Assembly: GCA_963803975.1 (NCBI GenBank)
Contig: CAWDOY010000038.1
Location: 1-29,554 of the forward strand
Length of the DNA stretch: 29,554 nucleotides
Source of the DNA: an uncultured delta proteobacterium
Lineage (GTDB): Bacteria; Desulfobacterota; WTBG01; CAIYCZ01
Reading direction: 5' to 3'
Shown here in pieces: positions 4,907-29,524 of this stretch (position 1 is the stretch's first letter; the number at the start of each line of letters is the position of its first letter). The notes under the pieces were generated by a model that made no database searches, was not told where the DNA came from, and saw only the letters and a program-made list of their open reading frames with translations. A program made the position numbers and the translations under genes.

Positions 4907-6871
4907 TCAGGGCGAAATGCCGTCTTTTTCGCGGCGGTTTGGAATGCCCAGTTTATTCATTCTGGAGTACAGGGTTGAAGGCTTGAGTCCGAGCAGCGTT
5001 GCGGCACCGTTAGATCCCTTTATCCGCCACCCGGTCTTTGAGAGAACATCCATGATATGCTGGTACTCTGTTTCTTCCATGGTCTGGTTTTTAAAGCTTG
5101 CGCCGGCTGGCGCCTGCGGCAGATTTACCTGCATGCTGCTCCCGGAGCTGATGATGGTTGCCTGTTCCAGCACGTTGCGCAGCTCCCGGATATTGCCCGG
5201 CCAGTGATAGCGCTGCAGCGCCTGCATGGTTTTTTGGGGCACTGCTTGAAATTTCTTGCCCATTTTCACCGCGAACTCATGGACAAAGGCTTCTACCAGC
5301 AGCGGGATGTCATCCGGCCGCTCCCGCAGCGGCGGCACCATCAATGGGAAAAACGTTCAGCCGGTAGTACAGGTCTGCTCGGAAAGCGCCCTTGCGCACT
5401 TCCTGTGCCATATCACGGTTGGTTGCGGCAATCAGCCGCACATCGACGCGGATGGTCTTCGGGCTGCCGAGCCGCTCGAACTCCCCATTCTCCAGCACCC
5501 GCAACAGCTTTGCCTGCAGGTCAAGCGGCAGCTCCGTGATCTCATCAAGGAACAGGGTGGAACGGTCAGCCAGCTCAAAGCGCCCGATCTGTCTGGCCAA
5601 TGCTCCGGTATAAGCGCACTCTCGCGGCCGAACAGCTCGCTCTCAATGAGCGCTGCGGGCAGCGCAGCGCAGTTGACTTTCACCATCAGCCGGCCATGCC
5701 GAGGGCTTAGGTTGTGAACGGCCTGGGCAATCAGCTCTTTCCCGGTTCCGGTTTCACCGCTGAGCAGCACCGTGGAATCAGTCGCCGCAACCTGCTCTAC
5801 CTGGTGGAGCACCTTCATGAGCACGCCGCTCGTGCCGATAATGTGCTCAAAGTCGGACTCCCTGCTGACTTCCTGCCGCAGGTAAATATTTTCTGCTTCC
5901 AGCTGGTCCTTTAATTGCTTAATCTCGTGATATGCTTTCTGCAGGGCCTCGTTTGACTGTTTGCGTTCCGTGATGTCCATGGACACGCCCATCACGCGCT
6001 CCGGTTCCCCGGACGCGCTGAAATACGGGCGGCCGCGGGAAATAATCCAGCGGACGCTCTCATCAGTAAGCACAATCCGGTATTCGACCTTGAATGTTCT
6101 CTTTTGCCCTAATCGACTGCTCTACGGACCGGCGAACATGTTCACGGTCATCGGGATGGACCGTATTCAGGAATGGTTTCGAAGTTTATCTCCTGTTCTT
6201 TAGCATAGCCGAACAACTCCCGCGCCTTATCGGTTGCCCAGAAATGGCCGGTGCCAAAATCCAGAATCCACAGGCCCACTTCTGCTGAAGAAGCTGCGAG
6301 ATGAAGCCGTACCTCGCTTTCGCGCAAGGCGCTGGTCTTCGCGTTTCCGGGCAAGCGCATTGGCGAAAATGCTCACCCCGAGCAGGCGCAGCCGCGGGAT
6401 ATACTCATCAGGCCAGGCACGCTCACTGCGCACGGATTGAATCGGGCTATGAAGTAATGATTATGTCCCATCGGTGAAAATCGGTAGGTCCACAGATGAT
6501 CGGACTCCCCACTCGCTATAGGTCTGCTTGTCGAATGCGCCTCAGCCGGCAGCTCATCAAGCGTCGCAAAGGACAACCTTCGTGCTGCTCGACTATTTCT
6601 GTAGGCCAGGGAAACAACGCGACAGGAAGATCGGTTTTTAGCGGTACCGGAGGGTTCGTCTGAAACGCGGCGTGAGTGACCTGCCATGTGGTGCCTGTCC
6701 GGGGAGGCGAGCAGCAGACCGCAGCGGTCAACCTGGAAAAATTCAAGAATTTCCTTAAGCCCGTTCTCAATTTCCAGGCCTACCTGGTCAGGAGAGATAT
6801 TGACAAACCTGGCGGATATCGTCTGAGATAAGCCGCTCAAACCGCAAGTGTTCTTTAAGGGTTTTTTCCAT
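4907..6871 (-). CDS. Sigma-54-dependent Fis-family activator with GAF and PAS input domains (FhlA-like), multiple frameshifts
   Basis: Start [27 protein letters not shown] segment ([20 protein letters not shown]), Walker [15 protein letters not shown] followed by frameshifted [31 protein letters not shown] and C-terminal HTH ([17 protein letters not shown]). Pieces are spread over at least 6 ORFs. Confidence 0.9.
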
Positions 6872-8892: not shown

Positions 8893-9138
8893 ATGATTAA
8901 ACTAAACATCCATGAAGCAAAAACCCATCTCTCCCGTTATCTCAGCCGCCTGGCAAAAGGTGAAACGATAACTCTATGCAAAAGAAATGTTCCCGTTGCT
9001 GAAATCCGCCCGATCCCGCCGGACAGAAAATCAAGACGCCCCATTGGCCTCGCTAAAGGAACTTTCAAGGTTCCTAAAAAATTCCATGAACCCCTGCCGG
9101 AAGATATAATTAAATCCTTCTATGACGGCCGGCCATGA
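8893..9138 (+). CDS. Phd/YefM-family antitoxin
   Basis: NIHEAKTHLSRYL...GETI...KRN.PVAEI signature. ATGA overlap with the PIN toxin. Confidence 0.92.
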   Translation: MIKLNIHEAKTHLSRYLSRLAKGETITLCKRNVPVAEIRPIPPDRKSRRPIGLAKGTFKVPKKFHEPLPEDIIKSFYDGRP

Positions 9139-9521
9139 AAATCCTCCTGGATACCTGCGCTTTTCTCTGGATTATAACTGACGACCCTAACCTCTCGCTC
9201 AGGGCACGTGAGCTCTTTGCTGATCCTGAAAATGATATCTACCTGAGCGCTGTTTCGGTATGGGAGATTGCCATAAAACATTCTCTGGGGCGCCTGCCCC
9301 TGCCCAAGAAACCTGAGCAGTTTATTCCTGCCCAACGGGTTCAGCACGGCATCAAAAGCCTTGCGCTTGATGAGGACGACTCTCTCTACGTAACAAAGCT
9401 GCCGGAACTACACCGGGACCCCTTTGATCGCATGCTCATTTGCCAGGCCATCGTCAATGGCATGGTGATTCTGACACCAGATGAGTCAATTACTAAGTAC
9501 CATGTTCGGTGTATGTGGTAG
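9135..9521 (+). CDS. vapC: VapC / PIN-domain toxin
   Basis: LLDTCAFLW, SAVSVWEIAIK, HRDPFDRMLICQA and LTPD PIN motifs. Confidence 0.93.
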   Translation: MKILLDTCAFLWIITDDPNLSLRARELFADPENDIYLSAVSVWEIAIKHSLGRLPLPKKPEQFIPAQRVQHGIKSLALDEDDSLYVTKLPELHRDPFDRMLICQAIVNGMVILTPDESITKYHVRCMW

Positions 9522-10221: not shown

Positions 10222-12265
10222 TTAAAACAACCTCATCTGCTTTGGCTTCTTCTCCAGCTTTTCCTTCATCCTCTTTGCAATAAGCGGGTCCGTGTACCGG
10301 GTGGCGGTTTCCGCGGGAATGCCCACAAGAAACTCTGAACAGGGCAGCGCCCTTCGTTCGCCAAACAAAAACCTGCTCTGGCTATACAGCAGATAGAGCT
10401 TTTCTTTGGCCCGCGTCATCCCCACATAGAACAGCCTGCGCTCTTCTTCCGGGTCATCTGTTGCGTCAGCGTCAGCTCTTCGGTCATAGGGAAACAGGCC
10501 TTGCTCAAGGCCGGCGATAAAGACCGCGGGAAACTCCAGCCCCTTGGCGCCGTGCACGGTCAGGAGCGTCACCGCTTCCTGCTGCGGACATATCTGTTCT
10601 CCTTCCCTGAGCAGGGCAATCTTTTCCAGAAAAAGAGGAATACCTTCCGCGGCCGGGACCGCGGAAAACGGCATGGCTGCGGTAATCAGGTCGAGCAGGT
10701 TTTCATCTGTTTGAGAAACAGAAGATTCTTCATTGTCTGCAGAAGCCGCTCCGATAGAAAGCTTTGCTGCTATTTCCCTGATGAGCTGGTCAAGGGGCAG
10801 AGTGCTCGCTGGTCTCCGTAAGCTCATCAAGCAGCCCGAGAAATGAGTGCAGCCGCGCGCGGCGGTCTGCGGTTATCTCCGGGAGGTTGAACTCATGCCT
10901 GATGCTTTCAATGAGTGTTGTGCCGCATTTTTCCGCATGGTCCTTAAGGCTTGCGACTGTTTTCGGGCCAAGGCCTTTTACCGCGTTCTCAAGCAGCGCT
11001 GCCGCGGCCAGATCATTTCCCTGATCGTGCAGCAGCTCAAGCACTGCGATAATGACTTCAGCGTCCGGCTCCTCATAGAGCGAGCGGCTCGTTGCCACCT
11101 GCAGCGGGATGCCGGCCTGCTCAAGAGCTTCTTTAATAAGCCGTGCCTGGGCATGGAGGCGGTAGAGCACCGCGATATCCTTAAAGCTCAGCTCCGGCAG
11201 CTCTTCATCTCGTTGGTCGTGGCCAAGGGACTCAAAGCGGGTGCCGCCCACAAGCCTTCCTATCTCGCTTGCGATAAAGCGCGCTTCCTGCCGCTCATCA
11301 AGCAGCTCGCATAGTTCAATACGGGCGCCAGACGGTTTCACGGCCACCAGTTTTTTGTCGATGCGCTCCCGGTTTTTCTCGATTACCTGCTGGCTGGCCG
11401 CGATAATGGTGCGGGTGGAGCGATAGTTCTCTTCGAGTTTTACAATCGTAGCGTCCGGGAAGTCCTGCTGAAAATTTAAAAAATTCTTTACCTGGGCTCC
11501 CCTGAAGGCATAAATCGCCTGGTCCGCATCCCCGACCGCGCAGAGATTGGGGCGCGGCCCGGCAAGCTCCCGTATCAGGAGGTACTGGACGGTATTCAAG
11601 TCCTGGTATTCATCGACTGAAAGATGGGTTAACCGGCTGCGCAGCTCATGCGCATGGAGAGAAAATTTTTTAAGGAAGCCCAGGGTTTTTATTATCAGAT
11701 CATCAAAGTCAAGCAGCCCCTGCCGCTCAAGTACTTCCTGATAGGCCCGGAGAAACGGCGAGCTGCTTTCAGATGTCAGCTCGTGATTCTCCGCAGCGAG
11801 CCGGGCGCGATCATTTTTTTCGCGGGACAGCATCAGCTCGTACTTCTTCAGCGAGAACGACTGCTGTTCAGGGAAAAACCGGGGCGCGAGATTGCGGATG
11901 ACCGCCGCCTGATCCGCCGGGGAGATAATCTCAAAGTCGCTCACAAAGCCTGCGCTGCGGCATTCATGCTTTAGAATCCGGTGGCAGAGCGAGTGGATGG
12001 TCCCGACAAAAAGCGCGGAGAGGTCAATGCCCTGGCTGCAGAGCGCGGCTATTCTTTCGCGCATCTCATCTGCTGCCCTGGTGGTAAAGGTGATGGCGAG
12101 AAGCTTTTCCGCGGGGATGCGCGCTTCAGCGACCAGATATGCCAGGCGGTGCACCAGGGTGCGGGTTTTCCCGGTGCCGGCTCCGGCAATAATCAGCAGC
12201 GGTCCATTGATTGTTTGTACTGCTGCGCGCTGGCTGGGGCTGAGAGAGGAAAGAAGATCAGGCAT
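10222..12265 (-). CDS. uvrD: UvrD/PcrA-family ATP-dependent DNA helicase (one frameshift near 10810-10830)
   Basis: AGAGTGKT, ITFT.RAA.EM, GTIHS, VDEYQD, VGDADQAIYAFRGA and ENYRST in 10790..12265. LLTVHGAKGLEF and EEERRLFYVGMTRAK in 10222..10830. Confidence 0.92.
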
Positions 12266-17532: not shown

Positions 17533-18765
17533 ATGAAAAAATCTCTGACCACACGCCTTATCATTTTCGCCGTCATCAGTGTTTTCTGTATTCCCGCAGG
17601 CCGCGTTTTTGCCGCCGGATTTGCGCTCTATGAAGGCAGCGCCCGCGGCAATGCCCTGGGCGGCGCGCTCATCGCGCGCGCTGATGATGCTTCCGCCGTA
17701 TACTACAATCCCGCCGGCATCACCCAGCTTAAAGGCACCCAGATGATCAACCGGCTGACGCTCATTACGCCATCCAATAAGATATATTTTTATGAAAACG
17801 GTAAGGATTCGGAGCTCAAGCGCAACTGGTTCTACCCGCCCTACGGCTACCTGACGCGCCAGCTCTCGGACCGGCTGTGGTTCGGGGTCGGCATGTTTGC
17901 CCGCTTTGGCCTCGGTACCGAGTATGAAGAAAACTGGCCGGGGCGCAACAACAGCTATAACGCGGTGGTGAAGGGCGTGGAAATAAACCCCAACCTGGCA
18001 TGGAAGGTTAACGACTGCTTTTCAATAGCCGGCGGGCTGAGCGTGATGCGCCTTGATGTAAAGCTTGAGCAGATGATCCCTATCTTCGATGTGGATTCGA
18101 GCCTGAAGGGCCATTCCTACGGCTGGGGATTTAATCTCGCCGCCCATTACAAACCCCGCGACTGGGTCTCTTTCGGCTTTTTATACCGGAGCAAGGTGAA
18201 ACATAACCTCGGGGGCCATGCGGATTTCATCAAGACTAGTTGCTGCGCAGGGCTGTTCCCTGACGGCCCGATCAGGCCGATGTGCATGCTGCCGGACGAA
18301 TATTTCTTGGCGTCGCCTTCAAGCCGATTGCAAGCTGAGCATTGAATTTGACGCGATCCTCACCCGGTGGAACACCTTTAATCATATGACGATCAACTTT
18401 GACGACGGCATTGCCGGCATGGATGAGGTAACAAAGCAGAAGGACTGGCATGATGTGTGGCGCTACCAGATCGGGGTTGAGTACGCCCTGACACCGATGG
18501 TTGACCTGCGCCTGGGCTATACCTATGACAATGAGCCCATTCCGGCGGGAGGGGTTGACTACCTGGTGTCGTCCTACGACCGGCAGCTCTTCAGCTGCGG
18601 CTTCGGCCTGCACTGGGGGCACTGGTCAACGGATTTCTCCTATACCTATCTGCGCAGCTAAAAACCGCAACTTCGAAGCGCGCACCGGTTGACGGGGTGC
18701 CCAAAAGCAGGCTCCACGACGGGGATGCCTACATCATCGGGGCCGGGATCGGGTATAAATTTTAG
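17533..18765 (+). CDS. fadL: OmpP1/FadL/TodX-family outer-membrane transporter (frameshifts near 18320, 18660, 18690)
   Basis: Signal peptide, then AGFALYEGSARGNALGGA..A.ADDASAVYYNPAGI. Later FGLGTEY, INPNLAWKVND, W.DVWRYQIGVEY and LRLGY.YD. Final frame ends ...GAGIGYKF* (terminal Phe of beta-barrels). Confidence 0.9.
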
Positions 18766-20458: not shown

Positions 20459-21526
20459 ATGAAACGATATACAAAAAAGCGCTCAAAAAAGTCCTGGATG
20501 GCGCCGGGCACGCTCGTGCACATCGGGGAAAAGACCGTGGATATCACCGGGATCACGGTTATTGACTACAGTGAAACTGAGCTGCGGGAAGAAACGCTGC
20601 ACAGATCGAAGAATGCTTTTTATTAAAAGACAAGCCCACGGTTACCTGGATTAATCTTGAGGGCATTCATGATATACATCTGATTGAAAAGCTGGGGGCA
20701 TGTTATCAGATTCATCCGTTGACCCTGGAAGACATCCTGAACAGTGACCAGCGTCCCAAAATTGATGACATGGAGAATTATATCTTTATAGTTCTCAAAA
20801 TGCTGCACTACAATGACCAGGGCACTGATATTGTGTCCGAGCAGGTGAGCCTCATCCTCGGGCACAATTTTGTTTTTTCGTTTCAGGAGGGAATCAAGGG
20901 TGATGTGTTTGAGCCGCTGCGGCAGCGCATCAGGGGCAGCAAGGGAAAGATCCGCAAGATGGGGGCTGATTACCTGGCCTATGCTATGTTGACGGGATAG
21001 TGGATAATTATTTTACCGTTCTTGAAAAGCTGGGGGAGCAGATCGAGCTTCTTGAAGAAGAAGTGGTTACCGACCCCAAACCTGAAACCCTGCAAAAAAT
21101 ACACTACTTCAAAACGGGAGATGCTCTATATACGACAGGTGCATCTGGCCCCTGCGCGAAGTCGTTGCCGCGCTCGCGAAGAGGGAATCAGACTTGATAA
21201 AAGAGTCAACAGAGATTTATCTGCGGGATATTTATGATCATGTGGTGCAGATCATAGATACCATTGAAACATTCAGGGAAATGCTTTCCAGCATGCTTGA
21301 TATCTATCTTTCATCGCTCAGCAACCGGCTGAACCAGGTGATGAAAGTTTTGACCATTATCGCCACTATTTTTATCCCCCTCACCTTTCTCGCCGGCCTC
21401 TACGGGATGAATTTCAAATATATGCCTGAGCTGGAATGGCAATGGGGGTATCCCTTTGTTCTTACCATCATGATATCCGTCGTTTGCATCATGCTGTTTT
21501 TTTTCAGAAAACGGAAATGGCTGTGA
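20459..21526 (+). CDS. corA: Magnesium/cobalt transporter CorA (frameshifts near 20605, 20995, 21112)
   Basis: MKRYTKKRSKK..MAPGTLVHIGEK start, HPLTLEDI.N..QRPK, YLRDIYDH, MKVLTIIATIFIPLTFLAGLYGMNF.YMPEL.W..GY (GMN signature). Confidence 0.93.
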
Positions 21527-21658
21527 GCGAGCGTAGATGCACAGCTTATAGTTGAAATCAGGTAAAGCTGCCCTGCTTACGCCGCCGACGGTATAAATAA
21601 TAGCTACCGTTGCCTTGACAAAAACAAAAAAACAATGTAATTATTCTTTAAATTATAG

Positions 21659-21758
21659 ATTCTCCGAATCACTTTTTCTAAAGCCTTACATGCCATGAAG
21701 GGTGGTCAAAAGGGTTGTACTTGAAAAGGTACTGCCTCCCGTTTTTGGAAAGGAGAAT
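21659..21758 (+). ncRNA. Moco-family riboswitch aptamer, P3-less (Wco/tungsten-type) variant, copy 1
   Basis: P1 AUUCUCC/GGAGAAU. P2 AUCACUUUU/AAGGGUGGU enclosing a CUAA...AUG tetraloop-receptor-like motif. AGGGU, then P4 GUACUU-GAAA-AGGUAC, then GCCUCCCGUUUUUGGAAAGGAG, matching the moaA-type motif 3' end (GCCUCCCGUAUUUGGAAAGG). Confidence 0.88.
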
Positions 21759-21775
21759 TGGTCAAGTAACTATTG

Positions 21776-21809
21776 GCCAGTTCCGTTCTAATACGGGGCT
21801 GGCTTTTTT
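21776..21809 (+). terminator. Riboswitch expression-platform intrinsic terminator 1
   Basis: GCCAGTTCCGT/ACGGGGCTGGC stem + TTTTTT. Its 5' arm can alternatively pair with GAATTGGTCAA (antiterminator). Confidence 0.85.
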
Positions 21810-21837
21810 ATTATCACCCCATGGAGTAAAACTAATT

Positions 21838-23260
21838 ATGAAACACTTCCTAAGATACCCATCAATAAATCTGCTTCTGTTTGTATTAATTTTGCTATTT
21901 AAAATACCGGCGCACGCAGGCTGGGAACTGTTGACTTCCTGCTCCAACGAGCTATCAGTTGCGCGCAATCTGGGGCACAGCAAGCAATGATATATTTGCA
22001 GCTGGTGATTACGGAACGATTTTTCATTACAATGGAACTTCCTGGGGCACCATGTCGAGCGGCATCCCCCAAACTATCTACGGCGTATGGGGCAGTTCTG
22101 CAAGCAATGTGTTTGCGTGTGGCTGATCAAGGAAAAATTATACGCTATAATGGGTCTACTTGGAGTTCCATGACCAGCCCTACTGCTATAAGGCTTCGGG
22201 ATATGTGGGGCTCTTCCTCAAGCAATGTCTTTGCCGTTGGTGAGAGCGGGGTAATTTTACGCTATAATGGCAGCTCCTGGAGCACCATGATCAGCCCGAC
22301 GACTCTTACACTTCAGGGAGTGTGGGGCAGTGCCTCTAATAATGTATTTGCCGTTGGCGGGCCAAGCGCAAGCTCAGGCGGAGACCGTGGCGTAATATTG
22401 AAATATAATGGGAGTTCTTGGACAACCATATGGAATGATCCGTCAATTTTAAGATTTCACGATGCGTGGGGCAGTTCTGGAAATGATGTTTATGCAGTTG
22501 GAGAAGCAGGGGCAATCGTGCATACAACGAACGGTGGAACAAGCTGGTCTTTGATGTCAAATCCAGTTCTGGGAAGTACTGTGGTACTTCGAGATATATG
22601 GGGAAATGCTGCAAATAATATTTTTGCTGTCGGTGATGGGGATAATCTGACTGATTTTGGCACTACGATTATTCATTATGATGGAACGGCCTGGAGCATC
22701 ATGAAAAACCCGCGTGAGCAATATATCCTTAAACTTCCACGGCGTTTGGGGTAGCTCTGCAACCAGCGTTCTTGCTGTTGGTGAAGCAGGAACACTCCTG
22801 CAATTCGACAGTGATGGTGATGATGTGCCTGATTACCAGGATAATTGTCCAAACGATTGTAATACTGAGCAGCTTGATGCAGATAGCGATACCATCGGAG
22901 ATGTCTGTGACCAACACCCGGTTGCGGAGGATGCTCCGGGGTACAGTGCGAACAGGAGTGCATCCTTCCAGATACGGATAGTGATGGCATCCCCGACTTC
23001 AGAGATAATTGCCCCAGTGTTTCTAATCCAACTCAGACTGATACAGATCATGATAGCTTTGGTGACGTCTGTGACATTTGCCCTAACTGACCTCAACAGA
23101 TGATGCAGATAGTGATGGCGCTTGCGGGAGCGTTGACAATTGTCCAGGCAGATGTAACACCGGGCAGCTCGATGCGGATAGTGATGGTATAGGGGATGTG
23201 TGTGACCCGACACCTGGGTGTGGGGGCTGTGGTCTACCGCAGTGCGAACAACAATGCTGA
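21838..23260 (+). CDS. Secreted seven-repeat beta-propeller protein 1 with thrombospondin type-3-like Ca-binding repeats and Cys-rich tail (several frameshifts)
   Basis: Signal peptide [27 protein letters not shown]. Stitched repeats [48 protein letters not shown]. Then [15 protein letters not shown]...QLDADSD.IGDVCD repeats, ending [17 protein letters not shown]. Confidence 0.85.
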
Positions 23261-23315
23261 GATAATTTTATTGTTTTTAATATAAGATCATATTTTACGA
23301 ATTTATATTTTTCTC

Positions 23316-23344
23316 TTGACATATTTCAAATAATAACTTATTGT
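23316..23344 (+). promoter_or_regulatory. Sigma-70 promoter upstream of riboswitch 2
   Basis: TTGACA-N17-TATTGT, 15 bp before the aptamer. A TTGACA also sits at 21615-21620 before riboswitch 1. Confidence 0.6.
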
Positions 23345-23359
23345 TCTAAACGATTCTAT

Positions 23360-23459
23360 ATTCTCCGAATCACTTTTTCTAAAGCCTTAGATGCCATGAA
23401 GGGTGGTCAAAAGGGTTGTACTTGAAAAGGTACTGCCTCCCGTGTTTGGAAAGGAGAAT
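23360..23459 (+). ncRNA. Moco-family riboswitch aptamer, P3-less (Wco/tungsten-type) variant, copy 2
   Basis: 98/100 identical to copy 1. The two differences fall in the P2 and P5 loops. Confidence 0.88.
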
Positions 23460-23474
23460 TGGTTATTGAATAAT

Positions 23475-23510
23475 AGCCAGTTCCGTTTCTAATACGGGGC
23501 TGGCTTTTTT
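23475..23510 (+). terminator. Riboswitch expression-platform intrinsic terminator 2
   Basis: AGCCAGTTCCGT/ACGGGGCTGGCT stem + T run. Antiterminator GAATTGGTTATT/AATAGCCAGTTC. Confidence 0.85.
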
Positions 23511-23560
23511 ATTTATCAATTAACGTTTAACAATTTTTATTAATTTGAGAAGGAGGATTT

Positions 23561-24919
23561 ATGATTAGGAAGTTATTAAGTCGTATTATGTTTGCAGGTT
23601 TAATCATGGGGCTGGTATTTTTTACGTACGGCACGAATGCTTTTGCAGTTGTAGCCTGCGGCTGGAATCTGCAATACAACCCTGACCCGGATCCCAATGC
23701 CAATCAGCTCCGGGCAGTGTGGGGAGCATCTGGAAGCGATGTGTTTGCAGTTGGTGATATTGGGACTATACTACACACTACAGACAGTGGCAGCACTTGG
23801 ACCCCAATGACCAGCGGGACCGGTGTAAATATTTATGGCGTGTGGGGCACTTCGGGAACGAATGTCATAGCTGTGGGTGACAGTGGAAATATCCTGAGTT
23901 TTAATGGAACTTCTTGGAGTGCTATTGTCAGTGGCAGTAAGCGACTGAGAGATGTTTGGGGTACTGCAGCTGATAATGTAATAGTTGTTGGTGAAGATGG
24001 CATGATTCGAAGATATAATGGAAGTTTATGGAGTCAAATGACCAGCAATACGACCCTGACACTACAAGGCGTGTGGGGCAGTTCGGCATCTAATGTGTTT
24101 GCTGTTGGCGGGGCCAAGGAAAACCAGACCGGCAGTGCTATTGTTCAAAAATTTGATGGTTCAACCTGGAGTAATATTTTGACTTATACCTCGATTCCGC
24201 GATTCCACGATGCATGGGGAACTTCTGATACCAATGTCTATGTTGTGGGCGAGGCTGGAACCATTCTCCATACAACCGATGGCGGGACAAGCTGGAATGC
24301 AATGTCAGTTCCATCGGGAGTTAGCACAGTGACGCTTAGGGACATCTGGGGAACAGCAGAGAATGATATTTTTGCGGTTGGAGACGGACCTGCTGTACCC
24401 AACGGAAGCACCATTCTGCATTATGATGGCAGTGACTGGAGCATCATGAGTCATCCACGGGATAACAAAATAGTGAAGCTGCATGGTGTCTGGGGAAGCG
24501 CTCCTGACAATTTCTTTGCCGTTGGCGAGCCCTATATTGAACCAGATCTCATCACCAAGCATGGCACCATCGAACACTATTATGGTCCATGCACAACCTT
24601 AATCAGCCTCTCCTCATTTACCGCAACCCCTTTCAGCAAAGAAGTAGTTCTTGAATGGACAACCGCATCTGAGATTGATAATGCAGGGTTTAACCTGTAC
24701 CGCGCTGAATCTGAAAACGGAGAATACGTAAAGATTAATGATGAGTTGATTACAGCCCGCGGTTCATCAACTGAAGGCGCTTCGTATGAGTTTGCGGATG
24801 ATGGCCTGCAGAACAGAAACACCTATTATTACAAGCTTGAAGATGTAGACTTTGACGGCCAGAGCACCTTCCATGTCCCGAAAAAGGCAACGCCCCGGTG
24901 GATTTATGGGAATAGGTGA
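23561..24919 (+). CDS. Secreted seven-repeat beta-propeller protein 2 with C-terminal Ig/FN3-like domain
   Basis: AAGGAGG RBS, signal peptide and seven W-G-x4-V-F-A-V-G..G.I..Y.G..W repeats. C-terminal SFTA...V.LEWTTASEIDNAGFNLYR...YEF.D...YYYKLEDVDFDG domain. Confidence 0.9.
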   Translation: MIRKLLSRIMFAGLIMGLVFFTYGTNAFAVVACGWNLQYNPDPDPNANQLRAVWGASGSDVFAVGDIGTILHTTDSGSTWTPMTSGTGVNIYGVWGTSGTNVIAVGDSGNILSFNGTSWSAIVSGSKRLRDVWGTAADNVIVVGEDGMIRRYNGSLWSQMTSNTTLTLQGVWGSSASNVFAVGGAKENQTGSAIVQKFDGSTWSNILTYTSIPRFHDAWGTSDTNVYVVGEAGTILHTTDGGTSWNAMSVPSGVSTVTLRDIWGTAENDIFAVGDGPAVPNGSTILHYDGSDWSIMSHPRDNKIVKLHGVWGSAPDNFFAVGEPYIEPDLITKHGTIEHYYGPCTTLISLSSFTATPFSKEVVLEWTTASEIDNAGFNLYRAESENGEYVKINDELITARGSSTEGASYEFADDGLQNRNTYYYKLEDVDFDGQSTFHVPKKATPRWIYGNR

Positions 24920-24965
24920 AACGTGTAAAGTGAATACACACCGTGAAAAAAACAGGGAGTGAGAT

Positions 24966-25079
24966 ATGAAAAAAGAATATGAAGCACCAAAAGTAATAAC
25001 GTACTCTGAAGATGAGCTCATTGAAATGCTCGGTCCGGCCCAAACCTGCTCACCCAGCCCGTGCCCGACCTATCAATGA
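24966..25079 (+). CDS. 37-aa peptide with RiPP-leader-like YxxP motif and Cys/Pro tail (not in ORF track)
   Basis: MKKEYEAPKVITYSEDELIEMLGPAQTCSPSPCPTYQ*. AGGGAG RBS upstream and a terminator downstream. Confidence 0.7.
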   Translation: MKKEYEAPKVITYSEDELIEMLGPAQTCSPSPCPTYQ

Positions 25080-25114
25080 TAAAAGTCGGTAAAAACCATC
25101 GAACGTAAGGCAAT

Positions 25115-25150
25115 AAGGCGGGGCCGGAAATGGCCCTGCCTTTTCTTGTT
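25115..25150 (+). terminator. Intrinsic terminator after the small peptide
   Basis: AAGGCGGGGCC-GGAAAT-GGCCCTGCCTT followed by TTCTTGTTT. Confidence 0.65.
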
Positions 25151-25186
25151 TAACAACTGAACCCTTGAAACATATAAAAACGCATT

Positions 25187-26977
25187 ATGAAAAAAATATT
25201 TTATTTCGTCATTCTGTTTTTTTTGTCACTCAGCGCTGCACAGGCCGAGTGGTCGGTTCAATATAATCCTGACCCTGATCCCAATGCCAACCAGCTCCGG
25301 GCCGTTTGGGGCGCATCAGGCACTGAAGCATTTGCGGTGGGTGAATATGGCACCATATTGCATACAACAAATAATGGAACCGTCTGGAATCTTATGCCGG
25401 CTGGTATCATACAAACTATGTACGGTATCTGGGGCAGCTCAGCGACTGACATTTTTATTGTAGCCGATACAGGTATAATTCTGCGCTATGATGGCACTAC
25501 TTGGAGCACCATGACCAGTCCGGTAATAACACGGCTGCGTGATGTATGGGGCGTATCTGAGACGGATGTGTTTGCTGTGGGCGAAAACGGGGTGATACTG
25601 CATTATAATGGTACAGCATGGAGCAACATGACCAGCCCGACGACTCTAACGTTACAGGGTGTGTGGGGCACTGCAGGAAATAATCTATTTGCTGTAGGCG
25701 GGCCCAGTGCAAGCTCCGGAGGAGATCGCGGCACTATTTTAAAATATGACGGGGGAAAGTGGAGCATTATCTGGAACGATCCGTCAATTCTGAGATTTCA
25801 TGACATCTGGGGAAGTTCAGCTACCAATCTGTTTGCCGTGGGAGAGGCCGGAGCCATCGTGCATTCAACCAATGGCGGAACAAACTGGGAAGTTATGGAT
25901 AATCCCGCGCAAGGCAGTTCGGTCACACTACGAGACATTTGGGGAAACTCCGGGAGCGATATTTTTGCCGTCGGCGACGGTAATCCTGCAAGTGATTACG
26001 GCAGCACCATCCTGCATTATGACGGCAACGCCTGGAGCATTATGGATAATCCGCGCAGCGCAACATCCACAAAGCTGCATGGTGTCTGGGGCAGTGCAGC
26101 AGATAACGTATTTGCCGTCGGTGACAGATATATCGAAGAGGACGGGTTAACCACGCATGGAACGATTATGCATTATACCGGGACTGCTGCATCCACTTCC
26201 ACAACGTCCAGCACCTCCTCTTCAACGACCACCGCGCCGACTACATCGAGCAGCTCAACCTCCAGCACCTCCTCTTCAACCACCACCGCACCGGTCACAT
26301 CGAGCAGCTCAACGTCCAGCACCTCCTCTTCGACCACCACCGTACCGACTACCTCGAGCAGCTCAAGTTCCAGCTCCTCCTCTTCTACCACCAGCAGTAT
26401 CAGCGGAGGCAGTACCACCTCCCCATCTACCACGACAACATCAGCGGCAAGCACCACTACGACAGTGCCGGTAACAACCAGCAGCACAAGTACCGCTGCT
26501 GCAACCAGCACCTCTACCAGCTCTTCAATCACTACCAGCTCTGTCCCCATAACCAGCACCACTACCACCACGGTCTTCTGTGTAGTTGAGAAAATCTTTG
26601 ATGGTACGGACAAGCCTGAAGTTTCCATGGTCCGATCGTACCGGAACACGCGGCTCACTAAATCATTTACCGGCATCATGTTGATGTATCTCTACTATAC
26701 TCATTCTGAAGAAATGACACAGGTCTTAACCGCGCACCCGGCACTCTCTATGAAAGCTGCCGCACTTGCTAAGGAACTTATTCCTTCCCTGCAGTCCGGC
26801 CTGCAAAATAACAGTGCTATTGTTCTGACCGGGGACCAATATAACCGGGTGCTCGATATCCTCAGAGAGATGAGGGAAAAATCATCTCCGCGATTAGCCG
26901 GCGCCATAACTTTTGTTCTGAAAAAGCTTGCATCACCGGAACAATTAGAGAAAACAGGGGTGCTCGTGCGGCGCTGA
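25187..26977 (+). CDS. Secreted seven-repeat beta-propeller protein 3 with long Ser/Thr linker and CFI-box-CTERM-like C-terminal domain
   Basis: Signal peptide ending AAQA, seven WG repeats and a roughly 130-aa S/T linker. C-terminal C.VE..F....PEV..VR.YRN..L.KS.TG..L..LYY..S helical domain. Confidence 0.9.
   Translation: MKKIFYFVILFFLSLSAAQAEWSVQYNPDPDPNANQLRAVWGASGTEAFAVGEYGTILHTTNNGTVWNLMPAGIIQTMYGIWGSSATDIFIVADTGIILRYDGTTWSTMTSPVITRLRDVWGVSETDVFAVGENGVILHYNGTAWSNMTSPTTLTLQGVWGTAGNNLFAVGGPSASSGGDRGTILKYDGGKWSIIWNDPSILRFHDIWGSSATNLFAVGEAGAIVHSTNGGTNWEVMDNPAQGSSVTLRDIWGNSGSDIFAVGDGNPASDYGSTILHYDGNAWSIMDNPRSATSTKLHGVWGSAADNVFAVGDRYIEEDGLTTHGTIMHYTGTAASTSTTSSTSSSTTTAPTTSSSSTSSTSSSTTTAPVTSSSSTSSTSSSTTTVPTTSSSSSSSSSSSTTSSISGGSTTSPSTTTTSAASTTTTVPVTTSSTSTAAATSTSTSSSITTSSVPITSTTTTTVFCVVEKIFDGTDKPEVSMVRSYRNTRLTKSFTGIMLMYLYYTHSEEMTQVLTAHPALSMKAAALAKELIPSLQSGLQNNSAIVLTGDQYNRVLDILREMREKSSPRLAGAITFVLKKLASPEQLEKTGVLVRR
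26207..26392 (+). repeat. 54-bp tandem repeat (about 3.5 units) encoding the Ser/Thr linker
   Basis: Units start TCCAGC at 26207, 26261, 26315 and 26369 (SSTSSSTTT.P.TSSSST). Confidence 0.85.
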
Positions 26978-27009
26978 CCGCCTGATCCCTCATGCAGGAA
27001 AGATCTCAT

Positions 27010-28223
27010 ATGAAACAAAGAAAATACATACCCTCTTTGGTCTTGGCTCTTGCCATTATCCCGATGCTTTTGCTGCTGCCATGTCTATCCGCCCATGCCG
27101 GCTGGGAGGCACAGAGTACCGTACCGACCAAGAACCAGCTCCGCGCGGTATGGGCCAGCTCCGCAACTGACGTGTTTGCAGTGGGCGATTACGGCACGAT
27201 TGTCCACTATGACGGCACCAGCTGGGGCAGCACCACGGTGGGAGCCTTTAATATTTACGGGGTGTGGGGAACTTCAGAAACGGATGTTTATGCGGTTGCC
27301 GATAAAGGCATCATCCTGCACTATGACGGCAGCGCCTGGAAAAATATGACCAGCGGCACCGTGCAGCGCTTGAGGGATGTATGGGGTTTTTCCACGACCG
27401 ATATCTTCGCGGTCGGTGAGAACGGCACCACCCTGCATTATGACGGGACTACCTGGAGCCGCATGAGCAATGCCACCATCCTCACGCTTCAGGGGGTTTG
27501 GGGCATCTCCAGTGATGACCTCTATGCTGTCGGCGGCGCCAGCGCCAGCTCCGGACCGGGTAACGATATCATGGTCCATTATGACGGCAGCACCTGGACG
27601 CTGGTGCACACCGGCAGCCTGGCACGGCTGCATGACTTATGGGGAAACTCTGCAGCAAATCTTTTTACGGTGGGTGAATCCGGCGGAATCTTTAACTATA
27701 ATGGAACGAACTGGACGAGCGTTGATAATCCAGTGAATGGCAATGCTGCAATAACGCTGAGAGATATATGGGGTTCTTCAGGAAGTGATATCTTTGCTGT
27801 CGGCGACGGCGGAACAGTCTTGCACTATGACGGCGCGCAGTGGAAAAGCATGGACAGTAAAACCAGCGTCAAGCTCCATGGCGTGGCCGGCGTTTCAGCA
27901 AGCGAAGTTTTTGCCGTGGGCGAGTCCGGCACCATTATCCGCTATGACGGCAAAGATGATGGCGGCAACAATGGGAACTGCATCTTTACGGCGATCTTAG
28001 GGAAAGGCAACCCGCAGCTTGATACCCTGCGGCGGGTGCGTGATGATGCTCTGGTTAAGAGCGCGCTGGGGGGGGGCTGATAGCATTCTACTATACCTGC
28101 GGCAGGCTGCTGGTACCGCTTGTTGAACAGCAGCCGCTGGTTCGGCAGGGCGCAAAACAGTTTCTTGAATCACTGCTGCCGCTCATAGCAGCAATGGCAC
28201 CTGCTCACGAGATCAGGCCGTGA
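27010..28223 (+). CDS. Secreted seven-repeat beta-propeller protein 4 with CFI-box-CTERM-like domain (frameshift at G9 tract 28068-28076)
   Basis: Signal peptide ending SAHA and seven WG repeats. CIFTAILG.GNPQLDTLRRVRDDALVKSALG continues in another frame as LIAFYYTCGRLLVPLVEQQPLVRQGAKQFLESLLPLIAAMAPAHEIRP*. Confidence 0.88.
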
Positions 28224-28754
28224 GCTTTCAGCCGCCGCACCACCAGCGGGACCAGCGCCGAGCCGGCAGCGCCGAACAGAATGTTCATGGTGGACCCTAT
28301 CAGAGCTTTTTTCAGCATGATGTCGTAGTCCATCTCCACCAGCCAGTCGATTCCCATGGACGTAGCATAGCGAAAGGCTGCTGCAATCGCGCCGACGATT
28401 ACGCAGGCCGGAATGCTGAAGGCAAGTCGTGAATACAGAAGCGCTGCAGCGTCCACAATAATACCCGGCAGAACAAACTTTATTATAAGCAGCGGCCCCT
28501 CCTTGCCCATGCCGAGCATGGTGCACATGATGCCCGCGATGAGCCCCACCAGTGTTGCCGCTCCCAGCCTCTGCACGCAGCCCCTGCCGAGAATCAGAAA
28601 AAACATGGTAAAAAACATGCGCGTGCCCGGGAATGTTCAGTTTCAGCATCAGCGCTGCGCGGGTTATAATGATAAATGTCGCGCAGAAACCAAGCCAGAT
28701 GGCCTCGCGCAGGGTAAATCGCTTCCACACCATTGCTTTAGTGTTACCCGTCAT
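28205..28754 (-). CDS. Predicted ECF-transporter substrate-binding (S) component (frameshift near 28620)
   Basis: About 180-aa highly hydrophobic protein when joined (...KLNIPGH/MFFTMFFLILG...GAATLVGLIAG...KFVLPGIIVD...). ATGA-coupled to EcfT. Confidence 0.7.
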
Positions 28755-29524
28755 GGGGTCTTCTTTATCTCCATGTCATTGACAGCAGCAGTTTTGCCGC
28801 GGAAGTTTTGATAGTTCGCTGAATTCCAGTAGCTGCGTTTGGGATGCGAGCCGAAAGCGCGGGCCTCTGCTGAAAGGGCTGCCTCATCAGCGGTCTTCAA
28901 TGCCCTGATGATAAGCGGCAGCAGCAGACAGTTCAGCAGGTCCGGCCAGTTGCGCGGGTTTAAGAGCTCTCGGGGAGCCAGACGCGCGCCGCGCAGCCGC
29001 TGGGCCATGGCAATTTCCCGGACTTCCCGGGCAAAAAAAGGAATAAACCGGAGGCTCGTAAAAACCAGAAACGCCATCCGGTAGGGCAGGATTTTGCGCA
29101 TGCTGTACATCATCTGGGATATCCGGGTCGTTCGCAGCAGGATTATACCGGGAAGAAAGAAAAGTAAAATCCGCAGCGAGGTGCGCAGGCCCAGCCAGAT
29201 TCCCTCCGGTATGCCGTAGCGCAGCATATAGAGCACTAACACCACCGCCATCTGGATCAAAAAGAACCAGAGGTCCCGCACCAGCTCCGCGACACTCAGG
29301 CGCGCCAGGAAATAGTAGCCGGCATTAACGGCAATCAGCGCTGCCAGCAGCCAGGGATTGCTCGCGCCGATAGCAGCCGCGCACAGCGCTGTGCCGAGAA
29401 GCAGCTTCCAGCCCGCCCCCATCCGGTGAACCGGGGAATCTGTTGCCCGGTACTGAAACGCGTAGTCATTTGCCCGGGGCTGATTCTGAATGGCTGATGG
29501 TTTAATTACATTCAATGGCGCCAT
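28751..29524 (-). CDS. ecfT: ECF transporter transmembrane component (EcfT/CbiQ family), start uncertain
   Basis: Y...DSPVHRM....KL N-terminus, LRTT, LRFIP, AQRLRG and AEARAF (the two conserved Arg motifs of the coupling helices). Confidence 0.9.
   Translation of the reverse strand: MAPLNVIKPSAIQNQPRANDYAFQYRATDSPVHRMGAGWKLLLGTALCAAAIGASNPWLLAALIAVNAGYYFLARLSVAELVRDLWFFLIQMAVVLVLYMLRYGIPEGIWLGLRTSLRILLFFLPGIILLRTTRISQMMYSMRKILPYRMAFLVFTSLRFIPFFAREVREIAMAQRLRGARLAPRELLNPRNWPDLLNCLLLPLIIRALKTADEAALSAEARAFGSHPKRSYWNSANYQNFRGKTAAVNDMEIKKTP

Follow-up and report, generated by a model that had tools for sequence, protein, structure and literature searches.

Exported beta-propellers behind Moco/Tuco riboswitches share a subfamily-specific arginine ring that may bind an anion linked to tungsten or molybdenum supply

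We analyzed a 29,554-nucleotide contig from an uncultured delta proteobacterium (GenBank assembly GCA_963803975.1, contig CAWDOY010000038.1; hereafter the window), in which four tandem genes on the + strand, here called p1 to p4, each encode a signal peptide and an exported seven-bladed beta-propeller of the Ycf48/BNR-like superfamily. The residues just before the Trp-Gly (WG) repeat of each blade are fixed by blade number in all four proteins and are conserved in this way in one subfamily of a very large repeat family, and riboswitches of the molybdenum/tungsten cofactor class (Moco/Tuco; Rfam RF01055) lie directly upstream of p1 and p2. We infer that these residues form an open basic site, that its ligand is an anion, and that this anion is a tungsten (W) or molybdenum (Mo) species. 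An anion-binding face tied to W/Mo supply, most simply one that captures tungstate or molybdate outside the cytoplasm, is the function that we tentatively propose. To our knowledge, the acquisition of scarce tungsten and molybdenum by anaerobes is poorly understood, especially where sulfide binds these metals, and exported propellers with an arginine ring behind riboswitches hint at an undescribed bacterial way of handling W/Mo outside the cell.

A preliminary description, made from the letters of the window, had proposed that the residues preceding each WG are set by blade. All seven motifs were present at the expected places in p2 (452 amino acids (aa), 23561..24919), p3 (596 aa, 25187..26977), and p4 (362 aa, 26992..28080), reading from blade 1 to blade 7 as QLRAVW, (N/T)(I/M)YG(V/I)W, RLRDVW, TLQGVW, R(F/L)HD(A/I/L)W, TLRDIW, and KLHGV(W/A). 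The same seven occur in p1 (21838..~23300, the 3' end being approximate) at positions 21956, 22073, 22191, 22308, 22452, 22584, and 22732, across three reading frames, with the blade-7 motif split by a frameshift between KL and HGVWG. With the Trp of WG numbered 0, position −3 is R, Y, R, Q, H, R, H in blades 1 to 7 and position −5 is Q, N/T, R, T, R, T, K; the corresponding residues of p2 are Q49 and R51, N90 and Y92, R128 and R130, T167 and Q169, R214 and H216, T258 and R260, and K306 and H308. The earlier tally of five Arg, two His, one Lys, one Tyr, and two Gln was correct but omitted three Asp at position −2 (in RLRD, RFHD, and LRD). The paralogs, which had been called otherwise diverged, are only moderately so, with 51-59% identity over the propeller and 124 of 309 columns invariant among p2, p3, and p4.

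Even against this level of similarity, conservation at positions −3 and −5 exceeds background in the alignments. Among p2 to p4, these positions were invariant in 13 of 14 cases, compared to 30 of 134 other polar positions, and in an alignment of 15 subfamily sequences the counts were 10 of 14 and 12 of 134, respectively. The Fisher p value of ~1e-7 is indicative only, since the sequences are related. What stays invariant across the subfamily is a core of five Arg (blade 1 −3, blade 3 −5 and −3, blade 5 −5, and blade 6 −3) with two Gln and an aromatic, and the His and Lys residues are not part of it.

We considered recent duplication or gene conversion as the source of the shared motif. In a midpoint-rooted tree of the propeller domain, built from 17 rows without an outgroup, every paralog of the window was nearer to a protein from elsewhere than to its neighbors in the array. 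The nearest outside relatives were P0152 for p2 (83% identity), P0161 for p3 (81%), P0299 for p4 (94%), and P0167 for p1 (69%), the last of these sharing thrombospondin type 3 (TSP3) repeats with p1. The codons of the conserved arginines also differ across the paralogs (CGG/AGA/CGT/AGG for blade 3 −3; AGG, CGA, CGG, and CGC for blade 3 −5). Because nearer orthologues exist elsewhere and the Arg codons differ, the amino acids are held by selection, and recent duplication or gene conversion was rejected.

At an E-value limit of 1e-3, the wider repeat family comprises 35,882 representative clusters, among which giant multi-propeller proteins are numerous. We anchored 2,840 blades in 308 collected proteins, of which 2,736 blades from 292 proteins lie outside the subfamily and give the consensus GTTxxLxGVWGSSxxDVFAVGDxG. 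In these outside blades, positions −4, −1, 0, and +1 are nearly fixed, and the most variable places are −6, −5, −3, +12, and +13, with 3.6-4.0 bits compared to 0.4-1.4 in the core; at −3, Y (18%), N (16%), and R (14%) occur most often. In 181 seven-blade windows taken from 73 proteins of the wider set, basic residues mostly occupied 0-3 of the 14 places at −3 and −5. Eight were reached in a single one of the 181, and its owner, P0299, is itself a subfamily member. The subfamily has thus frozen positions that are variable in the rest of the family, which agrees with the earlier suggestion that the signature is not a generic structural repeat.

Counts over 404 collected proteins, a set in which p2 of the window itself appears twice, gave the full seven-blade signature in 18 and the five-Arg core in 25, where the core was defined for blades 1 to 6 as Q/R, an aromatic, R/R, T/Q, R, and R, respectively; a further three proteins were N-terminally incomplete. 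When 20 relatives were aligned to p4, the five at 57-94% identity kept the whole signature, while the six at 44-46% kept the five Arg, both Gln, and the aromatic, with the blade-5 His changed to Gln in five of the six and the blade-7 His changed to Phe. In the nine at 40-44% the pattern was wholly absent. A signature universal to the repeat family was thereby ruled out. More generally, top-face positions that usually vary can, where they are held constant, mark out a functional subfamily within a repeat family of great size.

We found the subfamily only in proteins from metagenome-type sources and in a few records of metagenome-assembled genomes. Searching species-representative genome contigs with the subfamily alignment returned just four loci, encoding relatives at 26-29% identity, a tblastn search of plasmids gave two distant matches, and a protein atlas search yielded Ycf48/BNR/DUF6242-type clusters only. 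For two carriers of the signature, P0200 and P0202, named "MopE-related" and "thrombospondin type 3 repeat-containing", the longest contig given is 8,148 bases in each case. Another organism probably also has tandem paralogs that differ in their tails.

We modeled mature p2 with AlphaFold2 from a 38-row alignment. The propeller was predicted with confidence (258 residues at pLDDT >=90, mostly above 90; pTM 0.76), while the C-terminal domain was unreliable, with residues 319-424 below a pLDDT of 50. The modeled propeller has seven blades of four strands each, and its N-terminal strand provides the closure. As the preliminary description had placed it, the signature begins the innermost strand of each blade (DSSP on the confident part of the model); this strand starts at −4 or −5, and a buried Leu is flanked by −3 and −5. 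By construction, the seven equivalent −3/−5 positions would form a ring on one face of the modeled propeller, with no scatter over the surface, and this face is, in the model, the one that carries the D-A and B-C loops. The propeller domains have net charges of −14 to −17 and contain 7-9 Arg each. Since five of these arginines belong to the signature, the basic residues are concentrated on the ring.

A Foldseek search with the p2 model placed Ycf48 chains in the top 11 rows (TM 0.71-0.75, normalized by target), led by 5ojr_C (E 1.5e-12, TM 0.75). Ycf48/HCF136 (PF14870; PDB 2xbg, 5ojr, and 8am5) is likewise a seven-bladed propeller that works outside the cytoplasm, and it is the best structural match. 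Its conserved Arg patch, which in Synechocystis comprises R180, R196, R215, R219, R220, and R237, lies on the D-A/B-C loop face, which is also the predicted face of the ring described here, and is reported to bind carboxylates of D1 (PMC10403576). In short, low-scoring HMMER alignments, R180 aligned at −3, R196 at +13, and R219/R220 at −5/−4 or −6/−5 of successive blades, and a residue count on Ycf48 confirmed Arg at 180, 196, 215, 219, and 220. The profile of our wider alignment (A2) had no match among PDB sequences, so this mapping rests on short alignments.

The array differs from Ycf48 in several respects. Sequence identity is 15-18%, the Ycf48 patch occupies two adjacent blades whereas the residues conserved here encircle all seven, the conserved arginines sit in other blades and in another pattern, and the propeller genes here stand under a Moco/Tuco riboswitch. 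There were no photosynthesis genes among the open reading frames (ORFs) of the window. Against Pfam PSII_BNR (cut-off 27), p2 scored 27.0 bits, p3 23.8, and a piece of p1 18.5, with no match for p4, and the NCBIfam Ycf48 equivalog NF010237 (cut-off 326) gave scores of 34.9, 29.8, and 19.4 bits. By these profile scores, p1 to p4 are superfamily relatives and not Ycf48 proper.

The local pattern of the signature also resembles that of WD40 propellers, in which a hydrophobic-R1-R2-hydrophobic bulge opens strand a. In the bulge described for that family, "(V,L,I) R1 R2 (V,L,I)", R1 varies more than any other position and Asp is frequent at R2, and R1, R1-2, and D-1 protrude on the top face as binding hot spots (PMC3419727). 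The R1 and R1-2 hot spots are the topological places of −3/−5 here, and the richness of R2 in Asp and small residues is shared as well. WD40 was absent from the Pfam output at E up to 1; p1 to p4 are not members of that family, and the likeness is topological only.

An Rfam scan of the whole window, in which RF01055 has a gathering score of 36, identified the two aptamers. Aptamer 1 (21650..21771, + strand; 75.9 bits, model positions 1-135) is preceded by a promoter-like, sigma-70-like site at 21615..21644 (TTGACA, 18 nucleotides (nt), AATTAT; 10 of 12 positions match, a match to consensus only) and followed by a hairpin with a U tract resembling an intrinsic terminator at 21775..21814 (12-bp stem with 7 GC pairs, tail TTTTTTATTAT). 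Aptamer 2 (23351..23472, + strand; 72.9 bits, model positions 1-135) is arranged in the same way, with a promoter-like, sigma-70-like site ahead of it at 23316..23344 (TTGACA, 17 nt, TATTGT) and a terminator-like 12-bp hairpin with a U tract at 23475..23515. Each hairpin begins 3-4 nt past its aptamer. The P3 stem, which some members of the class have and others lack, is absent from both aptamers, model positions 59-73 being deleted, and both are therefore of the P3-less type. The minimum free energy structure of either complete leader contains an antiterminator instead, joining the 3' part of the aptamer to the terminator's 5' arm. The layout, as read from these predicted pairings, is that of an OFF switch, in which bound ligand would free the terminator and transcription would read through when the cofactor is scarce.

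Aptamer 2 is 90% identical to aptamer 1 and lies inside a 161-nt direct repeat. The leaders as a whole (21610-21815 and 23311-23516) are 86-91% identical as DNA, compared to 65-69% for the coding parts, a likeness that could reflect either strong constraint on the whole leader or copying of the leader more recently than the genes. A candidate third riboswitch before p3 was rejected, as the match was partial (18.4 bits, E 0.96, model positions 75-112) and corresponds to a terminator-like hairpin after p2 at 25115..25142 (+ strand). RF01055 was absent from the four loci that encode the relatives at 26-29% identity, which lack the signature (44,254 bases). An early reading of the array combined a Ycf48-like docking face with the absence of any Mo/W context; the second part of that reading was overturned by the RF01055 matches.

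P3-less RNAs, which make up 58 of 176 representatives, correlate with tungsten-cofactor metabolism and have been proposed as Tuco sensors and as OFF switches, some representatives having terminators, and the E. coli Moco element represses expression when Moco is made (PMC2408646). The genes controlled by RF01055 elsewhere (modABC, tup/wtp, moa/moe, and Moco/Tuco enzymes) share with p1 and p2 the aptamer class, here of the P3-less type, the terminator seen in some representatives, and the OFF logic. The passages of that paper on controlled genes name transport, pterin biosynthesis, and cofactor-using enzymes (PMC2408646), and exported propellers fall outside these classes. Our literature searches turned up no paper linking a Moco/Tuco riboswitch to propeller proteins.

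Taken together, the otherwise variable −3/−5 places frozen into an asymmetric ring suggest a ligand-binding face. Its ligand would be anionic, because the arginine core (five Arg, with two Gln and one aromatic) is set in an acidic domain, and it would belong to a tungsten/molybdenum supply line, because Moco/Tuco riboswitches precede p1 and p2. Under this proposal, transcription of p1 and p2 would run through the terminator when cofactor is scarce, and the propellers would capture tungstate or molybdate (mono-, thio-, or poly-oxo) in the periplasm or on the surface of the cell and hand the oxyanion to a transporter encoded elsewhere. In a bolder version, to which we assign a lower probability and which we regard as rather doubtful, the proteins would represent a new class of extracytoplasmic receptors of the W/Mo economy, turned on by a Tuco-type switch under cofactor shortage and holding tungstate or molybdate (possibly thio- or poly-oxo), or even a pterin precursor for salvage, in the five-Arg ring. 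In this version, the ring would be nature's equivalent of designed propellers that hold polyoxotungstates on their axis, and a common capture head would be presented on the cell surface by C-terminal anchors that differ among the four proteins. If true, exported propellers under a Moco/Tuco switch would add an extracellular step to transport, biosynthesis, and use of the cofactor. The question is directly testable with R51, R128, R130, R214, and R260 of p2, together with Q49, Q169, and Y92, with a soluble domain, and with the regulatory RNA.

Two systems offer partial parallels for such capture. ModA, TupA, and WtpA are extracytoplasmic, as is the capture of tungstate or molybdate under cofactor shortage proposed here; they have a two-lobed binding-protein fold where we find a propeller, so the likeness is one of working only. 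There was no ABC permease or ATPase gene beside the propeller array in the window. In the designer propeller Pizza6-S, a ring of His residues around the central cavity binds polyoxotungstate clusters (bioRxiv 10.1101/2020.11.18.388215), and a cationic ring round the propeller axis is common to both cases. Pizza6-S is engineered, six-fold symmetric, and a tool for crystallization and assembly, whereas the ring here is natural, asymmetric, and Arg-based, and its binding is only proposed.

Several observations weigh against an oxyanion-binding face. The ligand face is a predicted one, and its fourteen conserved residues exceed what one tetrahedral oxyanion needs. Both His residues are replaced in the remoter clade (H to Q and H to F). 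On the same face as the signature, Asp or Glu (D/E) stands at +12 in six of the seven blades and three Asp stand at −2; in the wider family, basic residues at −3/−5 co-occur with acidic residues at +12 of the same or the preceding blade (odds ratio (OR) 1.6-2.7), so the arginines may be partly neutralized. The preliminary description of a strongly basic site overlooked these acidic residues, and the domain is acidic overall. Known periplasmic W/Mo binders have a different fold, and all those known to us are of one fold. In Ycf48, the closest relative with a solved structure, it is carboxylates of a protein that the equivalent positions bind, and not an oxyanion. A gene-context scan of the window with Pfam and NCBIfam (27 + 13 ORFs) revealed no tup, wtp, or mod transporter, no moa or moe gene, and no W/Mo enzyme. 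On the regulatory side, the two leaders are one duplicated unit and are therefore not independent evidence, neither p3 nor p4 has its own riboswitch, a terminator-like hairpin lies after p2, and the assignment of P3-less RNAs to Tuco comes from a correlation in the literature and not from measurements of specificity.

The alternative that we take most seriously, although we consider it unlikely, is that an acidic macromolecule docks on the frozen face, be it a carboxylate-bearing protein or peptide or an anionic glycan, and that the propellers are surface adhesin-like heads on varied stalks and anchors. The riboswitch would then tie them to cofactor status for some purpose besides metal capture, for example the handling of an exported W/Mo enzyme or partner. 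The use of equivalent positions for protein carboxylates in Ycf48 is consistent with docking, as are the protein-binding hot spots R1, R1-2, and D-1 of WD40 propellers, and the conserved surface is large and asymmetric. The array proteins end in parts characteristic of surface proteins (TSP3 repeats, a Ser/Thr-rich stalk, and a CFI-box-CTERM-like tail), members of the wider family are fused to PKD, FN3, Big, and SLH domains, and a head domain overlapping PSII_BNR is listed, with ambiguous function, among predicted fibrillar adhesins (PMC9210967). However, no candidate partner was identified in the window, and docking alone does not explain control by a Moco/Tuco riboswitch. A purely structural role is improbable; here the residues would form an inter-blade network of salt bridges and hydrogen bonds, in which Arg and His pair with Asp at −2 or D/E at +12, and would stabilize this particular propeller with no ligand involved. 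The Asp at R2 of WD40 propellers does form a salt bridge with Arg or Lys in strand a of the neighboring blade (PMC3419727), Asp follows Arg or His in blades 3, 5, and 6 here, and the association of basic −3/−5 with acidic +12 in the wider family fits such pairing. Yet −3 and −5 are among the most variable positions in the 2,736 wider-family blades, so the fold does not need these residues; basic −3 and acidic −2 of neighboring blades are unassociated (OR 0.96-1.33, not significant); and relatives of equal overall identity lack the pattern.

Two further explanations were weighed. We give little credence to the binding of a pterin species outside the cytoplasm, whether Moco/Tuco, molybdopterin (MPT), or cyclic pyranopterin monophosphate (cPMP), by a salvage receptor for cofactor or precursor. 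The riboswitch senses a pterin cofactor and would turn the genes on under scarcity, and a site made of Arg together with Tyr/Phe, His, and Gln might in principle accommodate a phosphate as well as a stacked heterocycle. The signal peptides, however, end in AxA (AFA, AQA, AHA, and AHA in the four proteins), none in p1 to p4 contains a twin-arginine motif, and no transporter adjoins the propeller genes; we also know of no bacterial uptake route for these labile cofactors. Because the proteins lack the twin-arginine export motif, the phosphorylated pterin suggested in the preliminary description is an unlikely ligand. It is similarly far from probable that the ring is a catalytic center acting on an anionic substrate in the manner of a lyase or hydrolase, as in several propeller enzymes. 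Both His residues vary in the remoter clade, and neither Pfam nor NCBIfam gave a match to an enzyme family. Among the best 50 Foldseek rows, the 11 Ycf48 chains lead and the rest are almost all WD40-type or designer propellers, the sole enzyme listed being a GH74 hydrolase at rank 37 (TMq 0.38, root-mean-square deviation 22).

Beyond the shared head, the four proteins differ in their C-terminal parts. The p1 gene, which occupies at least three reading frames, encodes a signal peptide, the propeller, and TSP3 repeats: frame 21602 holds blades 1-2, frame 21603 holds blades 2-7, and frame 21601 holds blade 7 and the TSP3 repeats. Pfam TSP_3 scored 33.2 bits in the p1 tail (cut-off 25). In p2, the signal peptide is followed by the propeller (aa 35-345) and a C-terminal beta-rich domain of unknown kind. 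Two Cys are kept in the p2 lineage, one in AC[G/D]W before the N-terminal closing strand (23645-23665, about residue 33 of p2) and one in GPC after blade 7 (24590-24601, about residue 344). From their placement, a disulfide between the two might act as a clasp where the propeller closes; alternatively, the first Cys could be a lipidation site as in Ycf48.

The third protein, p3, consists of a signal peptide, the propeller, a Ser/Thr-rich linker, and a C-terminal domain whose match to the CFI-box-CTERM profile (NF041770) scored 32.1 bits, below the cut-off of 40. The linker (26200-26560) comprises ~130 residues, nearly all Ser or Thr, in repeated TSSSSTSSTSSSTTTAP-like units, and this composition suggests a stalk that joins the propeller to the C-terminal domain. 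In p4, the signal peptide and propeller are followed by the first half of a CFI-box-CTERM-like tail, which scored 18.7 bits against the same profile and covered its positions 3-33 of 69. A frameshift near 28075 has probably truncated this protein: P0299, which is 94% identical to p4, has 409 aa and is thus 47 aa longer. A plausible continuation of the tail (…FYY…) lies in another frame at 28059-28220 (+ strand), past the p4 stop at 28080. A hidden Markov model search with this putative continuation alone matched no family, and the p4 frameshift therefore stays tentative.

Other genes of the window are also split between two frames: those for a sigma-54 activator (4907-6073, − strand), a UvrD helicase (10222-12265, −), a FadL/TodX porin (17533-18661, +), a CorA channel (20719-21526, +), and a membrane protein resembling the S component of an energy-coupling factor (ECF) transporter (28170-28754, −). 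These splits could reflect either many sequencing indels or a decaying genome, and since so many genes are affected, sequencing errors, and not only real decay, may underlie the frameshift of p1 and probably that of p4. The S-component-like gene and a gene for a CbiQ-like ECF-transporter T component (28751-29524, −) converge on the end of the propeller array, and the ATPase genes of this transporter would lie past the window. A type II toxin-antitoxin pair is encoded at 8893-9521 (+), where a gene for a Phd/YefM-like antitoxin overlaps that for a PIN-domain toxin.

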